Assembly: GCA_003140095.1 (NCBI GenBank)
Contig: PLIU01000248.1
Coordinates: 2,304-66,303 of the forward strand
Source: Verrucomicrobiales bacterium
GTDB lineage: Bacteria > Verrucomicrobiota > Verrucomicrobiia > Limisphaerales > Palsa-1400
Direction: 5' to 3'
DNA length: 64,000 nt
The notes under the pieces: generated by a model
What the model was told of the DNA's origin: nothing
Seen by the model: the letters and a program-made list of their open reading frames with translations, nothing else
The model's database searches: none
Translations under genes and position numbers: made by a program
Shown: positions 1,739-19,670 of the stretch, piece after piece
How the letters are laid out: each line of letters opens with the position of its first letter
Numbering within the stretch: the first letter of the stretch is position 1

Positions 1739-1969
1739 TTTGGATGCCTCAACAGATTGGCCGAAGATTCAATTTGCGTTGAGGTGGCGCGCACGCTGAA
1801 TCGTGGGCTTTCAACTTGTTTTTGAGGGTCATGGCAGCAATAACTTCATTCCTACTCAATAAAGCTTGGAAACCGCGCGGGCGCTATGGGGACTTCACCC
1901 CATATCTGCGGGGCGTGGGCGCCGCACCGATTGGTGGCGCGGCGCTACTGGACGGACATCGGCTTTGGT

Positions 1970-2640
1970 AGTATCCTTTGGCCATGAGGGCCCTATCAGA
2001 GGGGGGATGCGGATGACCTGCCTTGGAGAAATGGCGCGGTGGCCGCACGACCTGCGCGGAGAGTTAAATGTCCGCCTGCAGCCACGGCCAGGAGAGAAGG
2101 CCGATCAACCTTAAAAAGACATTTGAATTGGCCACAAAAGAACACAAAGAGCCAAGACAAGGATCCAGAATGAAGGATGAAGCAGCCAAGCCACGTCACA
2201 GGCGCGCAGTCAAACCCGGTCAAACCTAATCAACCGCGAATGGACGCGAATAGACGCCAATGACTGAGGCGACAACCCAGGCAAATCCAGCCAAACCCGA
2301 TCAATCCGGGTCAAACGCAGTCAAACCAGTCAAACCGGATCAAACCAAATCAAACCGGATCAAACCTGCGAGGCTGCTGGCGTGTCCCAAAATTGGACAA
2401 TGCGATGCGGAAAAGAGATCGGAGGAAGGCAGCTTGGTCAAACCCGGTCAAACCCAATCATACCGGACCAGACCTGGTCAATCCCAGTCAAACCCGGCCG
2501 AAACCGGTCAAACGGGGACTCGCAGGAGTCAGAACAAATTATGGGCGGCCCGCTTTGCGGGCTGCTCGCCCCTCCCGAAGGGTCAAACCCAGTCAAACAA
2601 GTCAAACCCGGTCAAACTGGTCAAACTGAGTCAAAACAGA
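1970..2640 (+). repeat. Composite intergenic repeat element, copy A. It has a ~70-nt head module, a CACAAAAG...GAAGGATGAAG...CACGTCAC module, and four blocks of ~10-bp GGTCAAACCN tandem units.
   Basis: Head 1970-2041 aligns with the rc of 19604-19670. Region 2130-2199 resembles the rc of 19465-19500 and the rc of 61452-61521. Decamer blocks lie at 2208-2236, 2290-2367, 2436-2514 and 2581-2637. The three overlapping + ORFs here exist only because the unit has no stop triplets. Confidence 0.75.
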
Positions 2641-2794
2641 AAGTGAGGTGACCCTTTGATCACAAAACTGCCAATTTTAAACTCCAAAAGCAGGCAAAAA
2701 CCCCATTACAGGGGCTTTATCTTGCGGCAACCCCATTATATAGTGGTTTTTCGCTTTACTTTCTCCCGGGCTTGATGTTTCTTTGTGCGTTAAG

Positions 2795-7783: not shown

Positions 7784-7791
7784 TTTTTTTG

Positions 7792-7870
7792 TCCTGATCC
7801 TAATCCTGATCTTAATCTTAATCTCTTTCGTGCAATTCGATTAAGATTAAGATTAAGATTAGGATTAGGA
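7792..7870. repeat. Long inverted repeat (hairpin) made of tandem hexamers. Left arm is (YTRATC)x5, right arm is (GATTAR)x5.
   Basis: Arms 7792-7823 and 7839-7870 are 32 nt each. Of the 32 positions, 29 are Watson-Crick, 2 are G-T and 1 is a C-A mismatch. The loop is 15 nt. A T7 run lies immediately 5' (7784-7790). It sits between the stop at 7783 and the plsY start at 7889. Confidence 0.85.
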
Positions 7871-7888
7871 AATTAAGAAGAAACAGAC

Positions 7889-10429: not shown

Positions 10430-13400
10430 CTCCGCGCCTGCGCCACATCATCACCGCCACGGACCCGTCCGAGCGCCACCAATCGCTCGACGCCCTTTGC
10501 CGCCGCTCTTCGCTGGAGCAACTGCTGGCGGAATGCGAGGACCTGGAGTTGTTCCGCCGCCGTAGCGAGAGCCTTTATGAACGGGTGCGCGCCCTCTTTT
10601 TCCTTTACGCCCTCCATCGCTTTCATCTGCCCTTGCAGCCGGGCCTGAACCGTCTCGGCTGGATTCCCTTCACCGGCTGGTCCCACCTTCTGCAGCGGCG
10701 GTTTGAAGAGGCGGTCAAAAATTTTCTTGACGCGCAGCGCAAGGACGGCCCCAACGACGCCATTTCCAGCGCGCTGGCCGCCGCCTATTACCGGTTGGGC
10801 ATTCAAACGCTCGCCGACCAGGTCCGCCGCAGTGTCCGCTCGGTGCCCGGCAACCAATGGATGTTCCGCATGGGCCACCCCGCCGACCAGCCCTTGCGCC
10901 TCCGGCCCGAATTGTTGCAACGCGAGGCCGACGGTTGCTACCCCGTCCTGCGCGAGCAAACGCCCGTGCGCATGGACCTGACGCACAGCGCCTGGAGCGA
11001 CATTTTTTTCCTCGGCATGGATTACCCGGAAGGCGCGAAGGTCTTGAATGCGTCGGTGGATTTGGGCGTGCGCGGACGGGATCGCGCGCCCAAACCGCCG
11101 ATCGAGGTCTATCTGCGCGTCATTGACGAGCCGGTCTTGCGCCTGGCCAGCGTCGATTTGGGCGTGGCGGCCGACATCTCCAGCCTGGCCGAGGTGTTTG
11201 ATTTCGCGCGCGACTATTTGGGGCTTTTGAAAGCGGCGGTCATCGCCGCCGGCATCGTGCCGCCGGGGTTGGAAGGCTCCGGCCAAAGCCTGGCCGATTT
11301 GCTGGCGCGCCTGGTCGGTCCGGGCCGCGGACTGGAGTTGGTCAGCAGCGTCAACAATATTCCAAAAGGGTCGCGTCTGGCCGTTTCCACCAATTTGCTG
11401 GCGGCGCTCATTTCCGCCGGCATGCGCGCGACCGGCCAGGCCCGCTCCTTGCAAGGCGCCCTGGCCGAGCACGAGCGCCGGTTGGTGCTGGCCCGGGCCA
11501 TCCTGGGCGAATGGCTGGGCGGCTCGGGCGGCGGCTGGCAGGACTCCGGCGGCGTCTGGCCCGGCCTCAAACTCATCCAGGGCGCCCTGGCCAGGGAAGG
11601 CGACGCGGAATTCGGCTTGAGCCGCGGACGCCTGATGCCGACACACAAGGTTTTCGGCCTCGATGACGCTTCCGAGGCCGTGCGCCGCAAATTGCAAGAG
11701 AGTCTGGTGCTCGTCCACGGCGGCATGGCTCAGAACGTCGGCCCCATCCTGGAGATGGTCACCGAGAAGTACCTGCTGCGCTCGGAGCCGGAGTGGCAAG
11801 CGCGGGGCGAAGCGCTGGGCATCCTGGACGAAATCCTGGCCGCCCTGCGGGCGGAGGACATGCCGCGCATCGGCGCCGCCACCTCGCGCAACTTCGCCGG
11901 GCCGCTGCAAACGATCATTCCCTGGGCCGGCAACTTTTACACGGAAACTTTGATTGACAAGGCCCGGGCCGAATTCGGCGCCGATTTTTGGGGCTTCTGG
12001 ATGCTCGGCGGCATGTCCGGCGGCGGCATGGGGTTCATTTTCGCCCCCGCCCGCAAAGCCGAGGCGCAGGACCGCCTGCAAGCCATCATGTCCAAAACCA
12101 AGCGCGCCCTGGAAAGCGCCCTGCCGTTCGCCATGGAACCGGTGGTCTATGATTTCGCGCTCAACGAGCGTGGCACCTGGGCCGACTTGTTGACAGGCGA
12201 TGACGCCCTGCTCCCGGCGCCTTATTACGCCATGGTCGTGCCGCAATTGCTCAAGCTGGATTTGCGCACCCTGCCCCGGATGCGCCGGGCCGAATTGGAC
12301 AAATTCGCCGCCGCCAGTCAAAGCAAGCCCGAACTGGCCGGGGTCGTGCGGGATGTTTTCGACCGTTTGCTGCCGCGTTTGCCGCGCGAGTCCACAGTGG
12401 AGCGAAGCCTGGAGGCCATGCTGGCTGAAAATGGCTTTGACCGCGCCGAACACGAACACATCCGGGCCGACCTCATCGATGGCCGCCTCGGCCTGGCCCA
12501 GAACCGCTTGCCCGCCAGCGCGGTCATTCAGGATGTCCAACCCGGCGACGTGATCGACGCCACCATCCCCCTGCCAGAAGAGGATGCGGTCCGGGGGCGC
12601 GAGGCCATCGCCAGCGGGGCGGCGGCGATCGTCACGCTGGCCGCCGGCCTGGGCAGCCGCTGGACGCAAGGGGCGGGAGTGGTCAAGGCCCTGCATCCGT
12701 TTCGCAAGTGGGCCGGACGCCATCGCACTTTTTTGGAAGTGCATCTGGCCAAGAGCCGGCGCGCGGGGCGCCAGCACGGCGTCATGCTGCCGCACGTCGT
12801 CACGACTAGCTATTTGACTCACGCGCCGATCGAGGAATTTCTCCGGCGGCAAAACCACTACGGCTATCCCGGCCCGCTGTTGCTCTCGCCCGGCCGCGCT
12901 ATTGGGCTGCGCCTGGTGCCGATGGAGCGCGACCTGCGGTTTTTGTGGGAGGAAATGCCCCAGCAACTGCTCGATGAACAAGCGCAGAAAGTTCGCCAGA
13001 GCCTGCACACCGCCCTCATCGCCTGGGCCAAACAGGCCGGCGAAGGCGGCGACTACACCGATAACGTCCCGGCGCAATGCCTCCATCCGGTGGGTCATTG
13101 GTACGAAGTTTCCAACCTCATGCGCAACGGCGTGCTGCTCCGACTTTTGCAAGAGCGTCCGAACCTGCGCTATCTGCTGGTTCACAACATCGACTGCCTG
13201 GGCGTCGATTTGGACCCGGGCCTGTTGGGATTGCACATCCGGCTCGGGGCCTGCTTGTCCTTCGAGGTCACCACTCGCCGCCTGGAAGACCGCGGCGGCG
13301 GCTTGGCGCGAGTCCAGGGCCGCCCGCGCATTCTGGAGGGCCTGGCCATGCCGCGAGAGGAAGATGAATTCGCCCTCTCCTATTACAATTCGTTGAGCAC

Positions 13401-17738: not shown

Positions 17739-19088
17739 TCAGACTGCGCCAGGCTCCGGATGGGTCCACGGCGCGCGATAGGGCCGGCGCAGCAGGGCAT
17801 TGGCCTCCGCGTCCCCCGCCACCTGGCCGGCCCGGTTGTCCCAACGTAACGAGCGCCCCAGCTTCATGGAGACATTGGCCAGGATGCACGAAGCGCTGGA
17901 GATATAACCTTCCTCGATGTCCGAGATGGGCCTTCCGCGCGAAGCCACGCACGACATAAAATCCTGCATATTTCCGCGGTTGCCCGGCGCGGCGAAAGTC
18001 TCGATCCCCGGCTCCGTCCGGTCCTCGGGATATTGATCCAATTCCAGGACGGCATCCCGGTGAATGCGCTGGCCGCGGCCCCTGGGGATGAAATCGTAGC
18101 AGTTCACGCTTGCCTTCAATGTTCCTTTGTCTCCGTAAAACGTCGTGCCCCAGAAGTATTCCGGATCGGGCGGGTCCCCCCAGGAACGATGCTGCCAGAC
18201 CACCTGCAGGCTCCCAAAATCAAACACCGCCGTCTGCGTGTCGGGCGTATCGGGCTTGTCCTCCTTATCTAGGAGGATGCCGCCGGAGGAACTGATGGAG
18301 ATCGGCCACCCCAGCCCCAGCATCCAGCGCGTTAAGTCGAGCATATGGACGCCCATGTCGCCAATGATGCCGTTGCCGTATTCCATGAAATTGCGCCAGC
18401 CGCGCGGATGAACCAGCTTGTTGTAGGGGCGCATCGGTGCCGGGCCGGTCCACATTTCGTAATCCAGGTTGGCGGGCGGGGCCGTGTCCGGCGGATTCTG
18501 CCTGGCGCGCATGGAATAATAGCAGTAAATCTCCACATGGCTGATGGTCCCCAGCTTGCCCGCTTTGACGATGTCATTCCGGGCTTCGATCAGGTGCGGG
18601 GTGGTGCGGCGCTCCAGACCCACCTGGACCACGCGTTTATGTTTCCGCGCGGCGGCCAGCATGGCTTGACCTTCGACCACGTCCACACTGATCGGTTTCT
18701 GCACGTACACATCCGCCCCGCTCTCCACCGCCGCGATCATGGCCAGCGCGTGCCAATGGTCGGGAGTGCCCACCAGCACCACATCCAGGTCCTTTGCCGC
18801 CAGCATCTCGCGGTAATCGCGATACGTTCGAGGTTTCTGTTTCGATTTTTGACGCGTGGCGAAATAGTCCGCCGCGTCCGACAACATCGTCCGATCCACA
18901 TCGCAGAGCGAAACTACTTCGACAGGCGCCACCTGGATCAGGCGGCAAAGATCGCTCTTCCCATACCATCCGCAGCCGATCAGCCCGACACGTTTGTTCT
19001 CCCCAGCCGCCACGGCAGCCAAAGGCCCGGCCGCGCAAAGCGCCAAGCTGGCGGCGGACGACACCTTAAGGAACTTTCTTCGATTCAT
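17739..19088 (-). CDS. Gfo/Idh/MocA-family NAD-dependent oxidoreductase with a twin-arginine (TAT) signal
   Basis: From the ATG at 19088: MNRRKFLKVSSAASLALCAAG (RRxFLK). Rossmann motif RVGLIGCGWYG, then TPDHWHA and VYVQKP. Confidence 0.85.
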   Translation of the reverse strand: MNRRKFLKVSSAASLALCAAGPLAAVAAGENKRVGLIGCGWYGKSDLCRLIQVAPVEVVSLCDVDRTMLSDAADYFATRQKSKQKPRTYRDYREMLAAKDLDVVLVGTPDHWHALAMIAAVESGADVYVQKPISVDVVEGQAMLAAARKHKRVVQVGLERRTTPHLIEARNDIVKAGKLGTISHVEIYCYYSMRARQNPPDTAPPANLDYEMWTGPAPMRPYNKLVHPRGWRNFMEYGNGIIGDMGVHMLDLTRWMLGLGWPISISSSGGILLDKEDKPDTPDTQTAVFDFGSLQVVWQHRSWGDPPDPEYFWGTTFYGDKGTLKASVNCYDFIPRGRGQRIHRDAVLELDQYPEDRTEPGIETFAAPGNRGNMQDFMSCVASRGRPISDIEEGYISSASCILANVSMKLGRSLRWDNRAGQVAGDAEANALLRRPYRAPWTHPEPGAV

Positions 19089-19249
19089 GGCCGTATATTG
19101 GAACCAAGGGCCTCCGCGGTCAAGACGCGTCGCAAGCCAATCGTGAGTGACTCCTTCCACACGGGCCTCCATCCTGCCGTCCTGTTCCTTCTTTCACAAT
19201 CAAAATAGTAATCTCCATCAGATCAGTGTACTTTCCATGAAAGATGGGT

Positions 19250-19670
19250 CATACTTGTTTTGCCTTCTCCGCGTATTGTGGTGTTTTGAACATTGAATTT
19301 TGGACCGTAAACCCTTGAAATTTGCACTTTTTTCCTCCGCGCAGGTTTGATTTGGTTTGATTTGGTTTGATTAGCCCGACCGAGTGCAATTTCGGCCATG
19401 CCGCTAACATAAGCATCTCGCTTAGGATACTATGCTTGCTCAAAACATTTTGACTGGATTTGAAGTGACGTCGCTTCATCCTTCATCGTTCATCTTTGTC
19501 CTGCCATCCCGCCCAGCAGGTTTGACTGGGTTTGACTGGGTTTGACCGCGCGGCAGTAAGAAGCCTAATTGCTTCCACTTTCATCCTTCTTCCTTCGGTT
19601 TTTCACCGCGCCATTTCCAAGGCGAGTCATCGGTGTCTCCCTTTGACAGGTTTCATGGCCAAATGATACT
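19250..19670 (-). repeat. Composite intergenic repeat element, copy B (inverted relative to copy A)
   Basis: The rc of 19604-19670 aligns with 1970-2041. Region 19465-19500 (GTGACGTCGCTTCATCCTTCATCGTTCATC) matches the rc of 2168-2199. Decamer blocks GGTTTGAYTN x3 lie at 19344-19372 and 19519-19547, each with exact 10-bp spacing. Confidence 0.75.

Follow-up and report, generated by a model that had tools for sequence, protein, structure and literature searches.

Decamer arrays upstream of smc in a Verrucomicrobiales genome as a probable copy of a dispersed, polar, mosaic intergenic repeat family

Four phased decamer arrays upstream of smc

This study concerns a tandem repeat that precedes smc in a Verrucomicrobiales bacterium (assembly GCA_003140095.1), at positions 2208-2637 of a 64,000-nucleotide stretch of contig PLIU01000248.1 (hereafter the window, to which all bare coordinates refer). 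Reading the sequence, we found units of the (G/A)TCAAACC type, ~10 bp in length, that form four runs across this region. We counted ~26 units, two or three of which are 9 nt long, and the exact TCAAAC core is present in 17 of them. The units come in two flavors, G-type and A-type, and are distributed over the following blocks.

2208-2237, plus strand: decamer block 1, three G-type units, two exact and one degenerate.
2279-2367, plus strand: decamer block 2, ~9 units grading from G-type to A-type and ending at an ATCAAAC-CTG junction (Tandem Repeats Finder, TRF, and sequence).
2436-2514, plus strand: decamer block 3, 8 units, mainly G-type (TRF period 10, 7.8 copies).
2581-2637, plus strand: decamer block 4, 6 G-type units, two of 9 nt (TRF), with the top predicted curvature in the first 20 kb of the window.

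TRF reported period-10 arrays (with alternative periods of 9, 19, and 20) at 2273-2366, 2436-2513, and 2582-2639. The 64-kb window contains 14 copies of GTCAAACC versus 2.3 expected, a number that 0 of 100 shuffles reached. The autocorrelation of 2208-2637 has its maxima at lags 10, 20, and 30 (0.46, 0.41, and 0.35, respectively), compared to ~0.25 in smc coding DNA, while Fourier peaks near 9.8-10 bp, together with a 5-bp harmonic, rise to 11 times the mean, the highest among 200 shuffles being 5.8 times the mean. The ~10-bp peak is thus found by both methods, in the Fourier spectrum above all 200 shuffles, and TRF, shuffles, and autocorrelation confirm the four ~10-bp repeat blocks described in the initial annotation. 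Block 2 begins slightly earlier than given there, with degenerate units from ~2279. Its statement that the spacers between blocks are unique is true within the window only since BLAST and profile searches show that, genome-wide, they are multicopy modules, with ~17 to 100 copies each.

A dispersed family of polar, mosaic elements

We scanned the whole assembly (7.81 Mb, 515 contigs, 57.8% G+C) of this uncultured, Limisphaerales/Pedosphaera-like soil bacterium, defining a block as at least three phased TCAAAC cores. This showed 286 blocks at 158 loci, against 0 in the shuffled genome, and a k-mer census identified the decamer as by far the most abundant repeat of the genome. Of the 158 loci, 83 are no more than 1.5 kb away from a contig end; the repeats thus break the assembly, and there are probably more loci than were counted. 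Spacing is very regular: the gap between successive cores is 10 bp in 802 cases, 9 bp in 36, and 11 bp in 13, i.e., 94% are exactly 10 bp. Blocks hold from 3 to 11 exact cores, with 9-nt variant units, and those with three units are the commonest (160 of 286). Among 757 units, ATCAAACCAA is the most frequent (322), followed by GTCAAACCCA (121), and the sense strand of the arrays is 45% A, 30% C, 15% T, and 10% G.

When 25 hand-defined modules were mapped onto all loci, ~480 instances of 24 kinds were identified, none of which is reversed relative to the decamers, and only 9 adjacent block pairs on opposite strands were found among 481 blocks. Arrays of the (ATCAAACCAA)n and (GTCAAACCCA)n types alternate, each with preferred module partners. 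A-type blocks (n = 278) are followed in 78% of cases by CTG and then module F, G, J, B, Dm, or I, while the module after a G-type block (n = 144) is M, P, A, N, or C, with CTG next in only 6%. Some module orders recur (array blocks in square brackets), namely M-M2-[a3]-J-K-[g3], [a]-F-O-[g], and S-[a3]-G-[g3]-P. Module P, recognized when the 3' flanks of all loci were sorted, is a GGTCAAACC-AGAAAAGGA-GGTTTGACC hairpin with 18 instances; it corresponds to an inverted decamer, the GGTCAAACC/GGTTTGACC hairpin being formed with the last array unit. The anatomy of an element therefore comprises a promoter-like head with a palindrome (see below), two alternating array types, and modules of 25-80 bp (more than 20 kinds); every part has the same orientation.

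The tested defining features of REP/BIME (repetitive extragenic palindromic sequences/bacterial interspersed mosaic elements), MITE (miniature inverted-repeat transposable elements), parS, iterons, and CRISPR are lacking, and hence the family is none of these; the initial annotation had not recognized the last three either. The parS site (TGTTNCACGTGNAACA) is a 16-bp palindrome with a few copies close to the origin, whereas the units here are direct repeats present at 158 loci, the half-site likeness GTGAAAC / GTCAAAC being a one-base near-match only. Iterons are direct repeats of 17-22 bp that lie beside rep genes or origins, at one locus or a few, whereas this unit is 10 bp long and occurs at 158 loci. 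The flanks examined there hold unrelated chromosomal genes, e.g., smc and those for a P-type ATPase and an oxidoreductase, although rep genes were not the target of a dedicated search. A CRISPR has constant repeats (23-50 nt) and unique spacers of equal length, accompanied by cas genes; here, the would-be repeats are decamer runs of variable length, and the would-be spacers are multicopy modules of 50-300 nt. REP units are imperfect palindromes of 20-40 nt with a GTAG or CGTC tag and alternate in orientation inside a BIME; REP/BIME were rejected because the decamer is nonpalindromic, 0 of the ~480 modules is reversed, and opposite-strand adjacent pairs number 9 in 481 blocks. No gene lying between inverted decamer blocks, as expected of an autonomous partner, was found in the assembly.

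Other repeats coexist in this genome (G000). Its only parS-like palindrome with at most two mismatches from the consensus is TGTTCCACGTGGAACA, at G000:C381:6868. A separate GTAG-tagged, palindromic REP-like family (module R; k-mer GACCGCCGCGTGAGGGCACGCGGCCTACAGGAT, ~44 counts) is present, e.g., at G000:C144 ~12990-13100, and a related REP-like word, ..CCCGCCGTAGGCCTTGCGAAGGCGGG.., is found in relatives G004 and G013. An independent repeat family (k-mer GGCCGAGTTCTCGAAATTCCTCGAAAATTTTGGAATACCC) has ~62 counts on both strands and 0 matches inside decamer loci.

Elements carry a promoter-like head and point at gene starts

A profile search detected 53 genomic copies of a head module, with the consensus CCAC-T[TGA]GAC[GA]-N17-[GA]ATnnT-N5-6-CATGAG-N8-9-CTCATG. 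Judged by its sequence, the head is a putative sigma-70-type -35/-10 pair with a predicted start at the conserved palindrome, the RTG of CATGAG lying 5-6 nt past the -10 in 46 of 53 heads. Decamer arrays are found within 1.5 kb 3' of 48 of the 53 heads, on the same strand in 48 of 48 cases, and the next gene is co-oriented with the head in 39 of 42. By eye, there is an inverted match of 5-6 nt (TTGAC / GTCAA) between head and arrays. Also by eye, an extracytoplasmic function (ECF) sigma-like TCAAAC-N15-CGTG was noticed at the junction of A-type arrays with module B, but this candidate was dropped because it is inconsistent across other modules.

Where transcription from the head is predicted to begin, there is an ATG or GTG that opens a small open reading frame (ORF), e.g., at G000:C129:11065-11200, at C15:21046-21180, and at window 1984-2114. 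These ORFs start with MRLLCS[SC]AKKGGYEDWRRH.. in one type, and with MRLIRGGYG-stop overlapping a second ATG in the type found in the window; a variant with a 12-nt insertion stays in frame. ORF length ranges from 7 to 199 codons, and a leaderless leader peptide, although possible, is therefore not supported.

We then related the elements to genes, using crude gene calls based on codon-usage scoring of ORFs (5853 genes, 84% coding). Array loci overlap called genes by 8% on average. The downstream gene is co-oriented at 108 of 128 loci (p = 9e-16), and in spacers between tandem genes 32 elements are co-oriented versus 7 anti-oriented (p = 7e-5). Elements lie in divergent, tandem, and convergent spacers in 42, 39, and 5 cases, respectively, against a background (spacers of at least 400 bp) of 235, 412, and 178. 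They favor divergent spacers and avoid convergent ones. Elements are thus situated at gene starts and shun gene ends, which is the reverse of REP/BIME behavior. By eye, the downstream genes are diverse and include IlvB-, IlvD-, PrfC-, MoxR-, and YajC-like genes, glycosidase genes, transporters, and others. An element usually ends just 5' of the promoter of the next gene, pointing at that gene. When tRNA genes were used as a ruler for promoter position, only one had an array nearby, and this one is divergent. At the signal recognition particle (SRP) RNA gene ffs, the promoter TTGCCG-N17-TAGGAT lies between the element and the RNA 5' end and has the same form of -10 as the heads. Taken together, these findings show that the elements form a non-coding (see below), dispersed, and strictly polar family, placed at gene starts, of which the two-flavor 10-bp satellite is the hallmark.

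The ffs gene (Rfam RF00169, 67.5 bits), followed by dnaX, is at locus L020 (G000:C390:42300-43450, ffs at 70-166 on the minus strand). It has a decamer element upstream both here and in G013 (L047), which belongs to a different genus and where the ffs promoter is TTGCCG-N17-TATTCT.

These properties bear on a role of the arrays as RNA, in which a leader driven from the head would contain unstructured A/C-rich, G-poor tracts acting as Rho utilization (rut)-like or RNA-binding-protein sites, or in which modules would act as processing or stability elements, tuning the downstream gene. The promoter-like head with its predicted start at the conserved palindrome would suit such a role, as would the strict polarity of the modules and their co-orientation with the downstream gene. 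So would the A/C-rich sense arrays, in which terminator-like sites are half as many as in antisense (62 vs. 122). Promoter-like sites are equal on the two strands (58 vs. 59). Mycobacterial interspersed repetitive units (MIRU) are co-transcribed and proposed to affect transcript stability or coupling. There is also precedent in STRR (short tandemly repeated repetitive) sequences and BOX repeats, which are co-transcribed, with a proposed effect on transcript stability or coupling (PMC2670836, PMC3049150). However, the own promoters of ffs and smc appear to lie 3' of the arrays and are conserved. An Rfam search with the window element and 10 other loci gave no match apart from the neighboring SRP RNA. 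In addition, the hairpins of module A are conserved with nearly no compensatory changes and no consistent strand-specific pattern of G-U versus A-C wobbles. We consider an RNA-level function rather unlikely.

The copy upstream of smc, part by part

A BLAST search against the genome showed that the element in the window resembles other loci from ~1925 to ~2650, spacers included, and that this likeness ends at ~2640-2650; only the tail of the region, 2638-2790, is single-copy. The order of parts is T3 Q E Dm [g] C [g/a] B [g] A [g] P-like. Besides the four blocks listed above, the parts of this copy are as follows.

1946-1988, plus strand: head with sigma-70-like promoter, TGGACG at 1949-1954, a 17-nt spacer, TATCCT at 1972-1977, then CCATGAG.
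2012-2075, plus strand: modules T3 (GATGACCTGCCTTGGAGAAATGGCGCGGTGGCCGC) and Q (..GAGTTAAATGTCCGC), the body of the head, with ~9 other copies by BLAST.
2120-2207, plus strand: modules E (2120-2152) and Dm (2170-2207, ATGAAGGATGAAGCAGCCAAGCCACGTCACAGGCGCGC), which run into block 1, with BLAST copies on ~20 other contigs.
2230-2278, plus strand: spacer module C (TCAACCGCGAATGGACGCGAATAGACGCCAATGA..GGCGACAACCC), 16 other genomic copies of 89-100% identity and 18 co-oriented instances.
2378-2414, plus strand, inside spacer 2368-2435: spacer module B (TGGCGTGTCCCAAAATTGGACAATGCGATGCGGAAAA), ~20 other genomic copies.
2515-2580, plus strand: spacer module A (GGGACTCGCAGGAGTCAGAACAAATTATGGGCGGCCCGCTTTGCGGGCTGCTCGCCCCTCCCGAAG) with a GCCCGC-TTT-GCGGGC hairpin, 76 genomic copies by BLAST and 107 by nhmmer.
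2638-2665, plus strand: 3' end of the element, CAGAAAGTGAG and the inverted decamer-like GGTGACCCTTTGATC, the local version of module P.
2686-2794, plus strand: smc-proximal region, a candidate promoter, leader, or regulatory element, ..GGCAAAAACCCCATTACAGGGGC..CCCCATTATATAGTGGTTTTT.., unique in the genome and outside the repeat.
19344-19670, minus strand: second copy of the element, T3 at 19670-19604, three G-type units at 19546-19519, M/M2, three A-type units at 19372-19344, then J.

The head at 1946-1988 (C314:4249-4291) is matched by the nhmmer profile built from 53 genomic heads and is a weak variant of the consensus T[TGA]GAC[GA]-N17-[GA]ATnnT-N5-6-CATGAG. Region 1925-2075, in which it lies, has ~9 genomic copies. 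Modules T3 and Q have 14 and 6 instances in array loci, every one co-oriented, and their region is also found as the reverse complement at 19604-19670. There are 25 co-oriented instances of Dm, typically 5' of a G-type array, with ~15 genomic BLAST copies of 2170-2207. Module B has 25 as well, typically with an A-type array on its 5' side and a G-type array on its 3' side. Module A is also detected in relatives G003, G014, and G002.

The second copy in the window (T3 [g3] M M2 [a3] J) faces a gene starting near 19172. This gene (17739-19172, minus strand), for a Gfo/Idh/MocA-like oxidoreductase, has its called start, MEARVEGV.. (start region 19090-19172), within module K (GAAAGAAGGAAnAGGACnGCnGGATG). 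The true start is more likely MNRRKFLKVSS.., a twin-arginine signal 28 codons further 3'. Elsewhere in the window, at 7784-7888, TRF reported a hexamer-repeat hairpin of TCCTAA/GATTAA units, whose GATTAT/GATTAA/TAATCC runs resemble those inside modules O and K; k-mers of the TAATCCTAATCC kind have ~29 genomic occurrences. This hairpin is probably part of the repeat vocabulary of the decamer elements.

Coding potential and predicted curvature of the arrays

The arrays can be read without a stop in each of the three forward frames, and modules Dm and K provide an AGGA-like motif and an ATG reading into G-type arrays, as might be expected if the region encoded a repeat protein made of KPGQT/SNPVK-type peptides. 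However, the forward ORFs are open because the unit has no stop triplet. The codon-usage log-likelihood of the overlapping ORFs is -0.05 to -0.28 per codon, below the 5th percentile of called small genes (mean +0.146) and compared to +0.448 for smc. The only Pfam match of the array ORFs is sub-threshold, its 15 bits (E 0.02) falling short of the cut-off of 25. Unit counts (3, 4, 5, 6, 7 ...) are not tied to multiples of three, and the 9-nt variants break the frame. There is no conserved frame either, the ORFs being interrupted differently at every locus. Codon usage, Pfam, and unit counts thus bear out the earlier view that the arrays are non-coding, and we give a repeat protein hardly any credence.

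The initial annotation also saw in the phased CAAA tracts a recipe for intrinsically curved DNA. We computed curvature using a Bolshoy/Trifonov-type wedge model, the results of which are indicative only. In this model, (GGTCAAACCC)n arrays bend by 35 degrees per 31 bp versus 41 degrees for A6 tracts, which exceeds 99.7% of shuffled-unit arrays, and the strongest predicted bends of the window are at 2300-2350 (block 2) and 2600-2700 (block 4). In contrast, the model gives only 8.5 degrees, i.e., nearly straight DNA, for ATCAAACCAA, the commonest unit, though its genomic behavior is alike. Since ATCAAACCAA accounts for 322 of 757 units, curvature cannot be the unifying property. Hence, the 10-bp phasing and a predicted bend of G-type GGTCAAACCC arrays stand, while arrays of ATCAAACCAA are predicted to be straight. 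That bending of DNA upstream of promoters might be the function of the arrays is improbable: in addition to the straight unit and the merely indicative parameters of the model, A3 tracts are weak benders, the blocks are out of phase across spacers, and the arrays are patchy among relatives.

The link to smc is incidental

A search with the Smc protein yielded relatives that are metagenome-assembled genomes (MAGs) of Verrucomicrobiia/Limisphaerales/Pedosphaera from soil, peat, and lakes. In 80 of them, any ~10-bp repeat upstream of smc was found in 12, most of these trivial, i.e., its occurrence is sporadic. G004 has (GTCGCACCCA)3(GTCAAACCCA)2, G013 has GTCGGACAAG-like units, and G002 has two copies of TTGCACCCTA. 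What is conserved upstream of smc is the ~110 nt at 2686-2794, in G001-G004, G013, and G016, which lack the rest of the element.

As an smc-specific feature the arrays are ruled out, being one of 158 dispersed loci and sporadic upstream of smc. The initial annotation, which presented them as an element upstream of smc, is not borne out in this respect by BLAST and pattern searches, and the link to smc is incidental. This removes a false lead: nothing here is particular to smc, chromosome segregation, or a local operator.

The smc-proximal region itself reads GGCAAAAACCCCATTACrGGGGC ... CCCCATTATATwGTGGTTTTT ... TTTAC and is kept across genera (loci L050-L055). It contains a CCCC-N6-GGGG hairpin.

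Distribution among relatives

Within the GTDB family, 16 of 31 species, spread over 6 of 10 genera, have the triple pattern TCAAAC-N4-TCAAAC-N4-TCAAAC. The pattern was not found in 16 genomes from other families of the order, and a reversed-pattern control gave ~0. Counts are 335 in this genome and 1-25 in the other genomes that bear it; it is missing from the closest relatives (G001-G003) and from G007, a genome in a single contig. The head was not found in any of 40 relatives. When one genome each of 185,579 species was queried with (TCAAACCAAA)x2.6, matches were almost only to MAGs of Verrucomicrobia subdivision 3/Limisphaerales, some of which hold many copies, each embedded in a repeat specific to that genome. 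In G013, from a different genus, 17 loci have another module of ~90 nt followed by GTCAAACCCAGTCAAACYGRRTCAAACCGAT. Of these loci, 16 are directed toward the downstream gene, and many lie 12-40 nt 5' of a good -35/-10 pair, that of ffs included. In G004, from the same genus, there are 18 loci with yet other modules. Among orthologous downstream genes, only 2 of 14 in G013 (ffs-dnaX and one small gene) and 2 of 10 in G004 (smc and one other) have arrays in common with this genome. Positions and modules therefore turn over rapidly, and the family is patchy among relatives. On the strength of this positional turnover and the diverse downstream genes, we rejected a conserved regulon.

A transposase of the RAYT (REP-associated tyrosine transposase)/Y1 kind was rejected as a dedicated partner since all 31 genomes of the family contain PF01797, arrays present or not. 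In G004, one decamer locus (G004:C2:2545417-2547551, L187) lies ~1 kb from two Y1-transposase-like ORFs, which may be coincidence.

This distribution can be set against the possibility that the arrays are cooperative sites for a lineage-specific DNA-binding protein, bound head-to-tail on one helix face upstream of promoters. The binder might belong to the nucleoid-associated proteins or to the winged-helix regulators of the OmpR/PhoB type, which bind direct repeats, or it might be a recombinase of the element itself. The TCAAACC core recurs in 6 of 10 genera of the family, as well as in other subdivision-3 MAGs, amid modules that are genome-specific; spacing is almost always exactly 10 bp, and three-unit blocks prevail. 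Moreover, triples in G013 lie 12-40 nt upstream of good -35/-10 pairs, including at ffs, which has an element here as well. Two or three direct repeats at a 10-11-bp phase, adjacent to the -35, are typical of OmpR/PhoB-family sites, which the phase and three-unit blocks fit, but distances to promoters vary, and there are up to 26 units per spacer, in up to four blocks. The two unit classes also have different neighbors. Further against a binding protein, occurrence is patchy (none in G001-G003 or G007 versus 335 here), positions are hardly conserved, and the downstream genes are functionally unrelated. We regard such a protein as a possible but unlikely explanation.

Discussion

On balance, we favor the view that 2208-2637 is the array part of one copy (~1946-2665) of a polar, mosaic, intergenic repeat family. 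The best reading of this family is that it is promoter-carrying and slippage-prone, akin to STAR (Staphylococcus aureus repeat), STRR, BOX, and BrickBuilt elements. Array length would change by slipped-strand mispairing, and loci may swap modules with one another through recombination or gene conversion within the arrays, which would offer the homology because they are ubiquitous and co-oriented. Slippage and exchange together would account for the order of the mosaic, its constant polarity, and the differences in unit number. The elements themselves may be selfish or near-neutral DNA, and their outward promoter and antisense-rich terminator-like sites would let them persist only upstream of, and co-oriented with, genes. 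Effects on neighboring genes would then probably be incidental, i.e., an extra upstream promoter or a long leader, and a bent patch in the case of G-type arrays.

Several points weigh against this view. Promoter activity of the head and read-through from it are deduced from the sequence. No mobilizing enzyme, terminal inverted repeats, or target duplications were identified, the ends being too imprecise for a systematic search, and Y1 transposases (RAYT/IS200-type) are present in all 31 genomes irrespective of arrays. The asymmetry of terminator-like sites (62/122) is largely base composition, as antisense arrays are T-rich. In G004 and in other MAGs, the orientation bias is weak (10 of 17 and 19 of 32, respectively, with crude gene calls). 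Finally, the decamer word is kept over at least six genera and other subdivision-3 MAGs, with differing surroundings. Such conservation goes beyond what is expected of a purely neutral satellite, which hints at a trans-acting partner, either a binding protein or a recombinase.

A more far-reaching proposal takes up this hint. The TCAAACC arrays might be the recognition word of an undescribed trans-acting recombinase, transposase, or DNA-organizing protein of subdivision 3, with co-oriented arrays serving as crossover or docking sites that shuffle promoter-bearing modules between gene-upstream regions. We consider this speculative and quite unlikely; if true, it would amount to a natural machine for shuffling promoters and leaders.

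Returning to the favored repeat-family view, comparison with known systems shows where the elements belong. STRRs are not, to our knowledge, described as alternating with a fixed vocabulary of modules or as headed by a promoter, and their unit is 7 bp long compared to 10 bp here. The STRR heptamers of heterocystous cyanobacteria are, as here, very short tandem units at many non-coding loci, lineage-wide; their function is given as unknown, with proposed roles in transcript stability or translational coupling (PMC2670836). STAR elements of S. aureus likewise combine short direct repeats with recurring spacers at many intergenic loci, expand and contract, and occur in several species of one lineage at different loci, with copy number unrelated to phylogeny; their function and mode of spread are unknown (PMC3532100). 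Like STRR and STAR, the present elements occupy many intergenic loci of one genome and are shared by relatives at different loci, with variable copy number. However, the STAR unit is 14 bp long and GC-rich, with at least 40 bp between units, whereas here units of 10 bp are directly tandem in blocks of 2-11. Furthermore, the present elements have two unit classes that differ in their neighbors, a stock of over 20 spacer modules, a head resembling a promoter, and strict polarity toward the downstream gene.

BrickBuilt, a MITE of Porphyromonas gingivalis, resembles these elements in having a leader, a variable internal tandem repeat, a tail, and promoter elements, in being always intergenic, tens to hundreds of nucleotides from genes, and in being species-restricted (PMC4596501). 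It differs by its single 23-nt repeat, its small inverted-repeat ends, and its 19 copies, whereas here there are several arrays per element, ~158 loci, and modules shuffled between copies. BOX of Streptococcus pneumoniae (PMC3049150) and BIMEs of enterobacteria (PMC2817692) are also mosaic, dispersed, and intergenic, with variable internal units (boxB); they have been judged parasitic, yet are co-transcribed with their neighbors and able to affect them. Their units are hairpin-forming or palindromic, REPs alternating inside BIMEs, whereas the decamer is nonpalindromic and nothing is reversed; BIMEs are mostly found at gene ends and our elements at gene starts. Putative mobile promoters, i.e., highly similar promoter-bearing sequences upstream of unrelated genes in one genome (PMC3575422), offer a further parallel, but they are single segments of 50-100 nt, while the promoter-like head here is the first module of a 0.3-1.2-kb array. 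In a survey of 261 reference prokaryotes, only two had dispersed satellite families of non-coding DNA (PMC6749651), and our full-text literature search returned no description of the decamer family in Verrucomicrobia. The family belongs with the interspersed mosaic intergenic repeats.

In practical terms, these repeats break short-read assemblies of Limisphaerales MAGs, as seen from the 83 of 158 loci at contig ends, and mislead start-codon calls, as for the oxidoreductase gene at 17739-19172. The finding is genuine but of an ordinary kind, and the moderate interest of the family as a whole resides in the polarity, the grammar, and the conserved decamer word. What is unusual is that one 10-bp word is kept across genera while its surroundings change, that two unit flavors alternate with a fixed vocabulary of modules, and that the elements are strictly one-directional, with a promoter-like head aimed at gene starts. 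Should the arrays be crossover points or protein docking sites, the elements could be used to study the rebuilding of non-coding regions upstream of genes and the spread of promoters within a genome.

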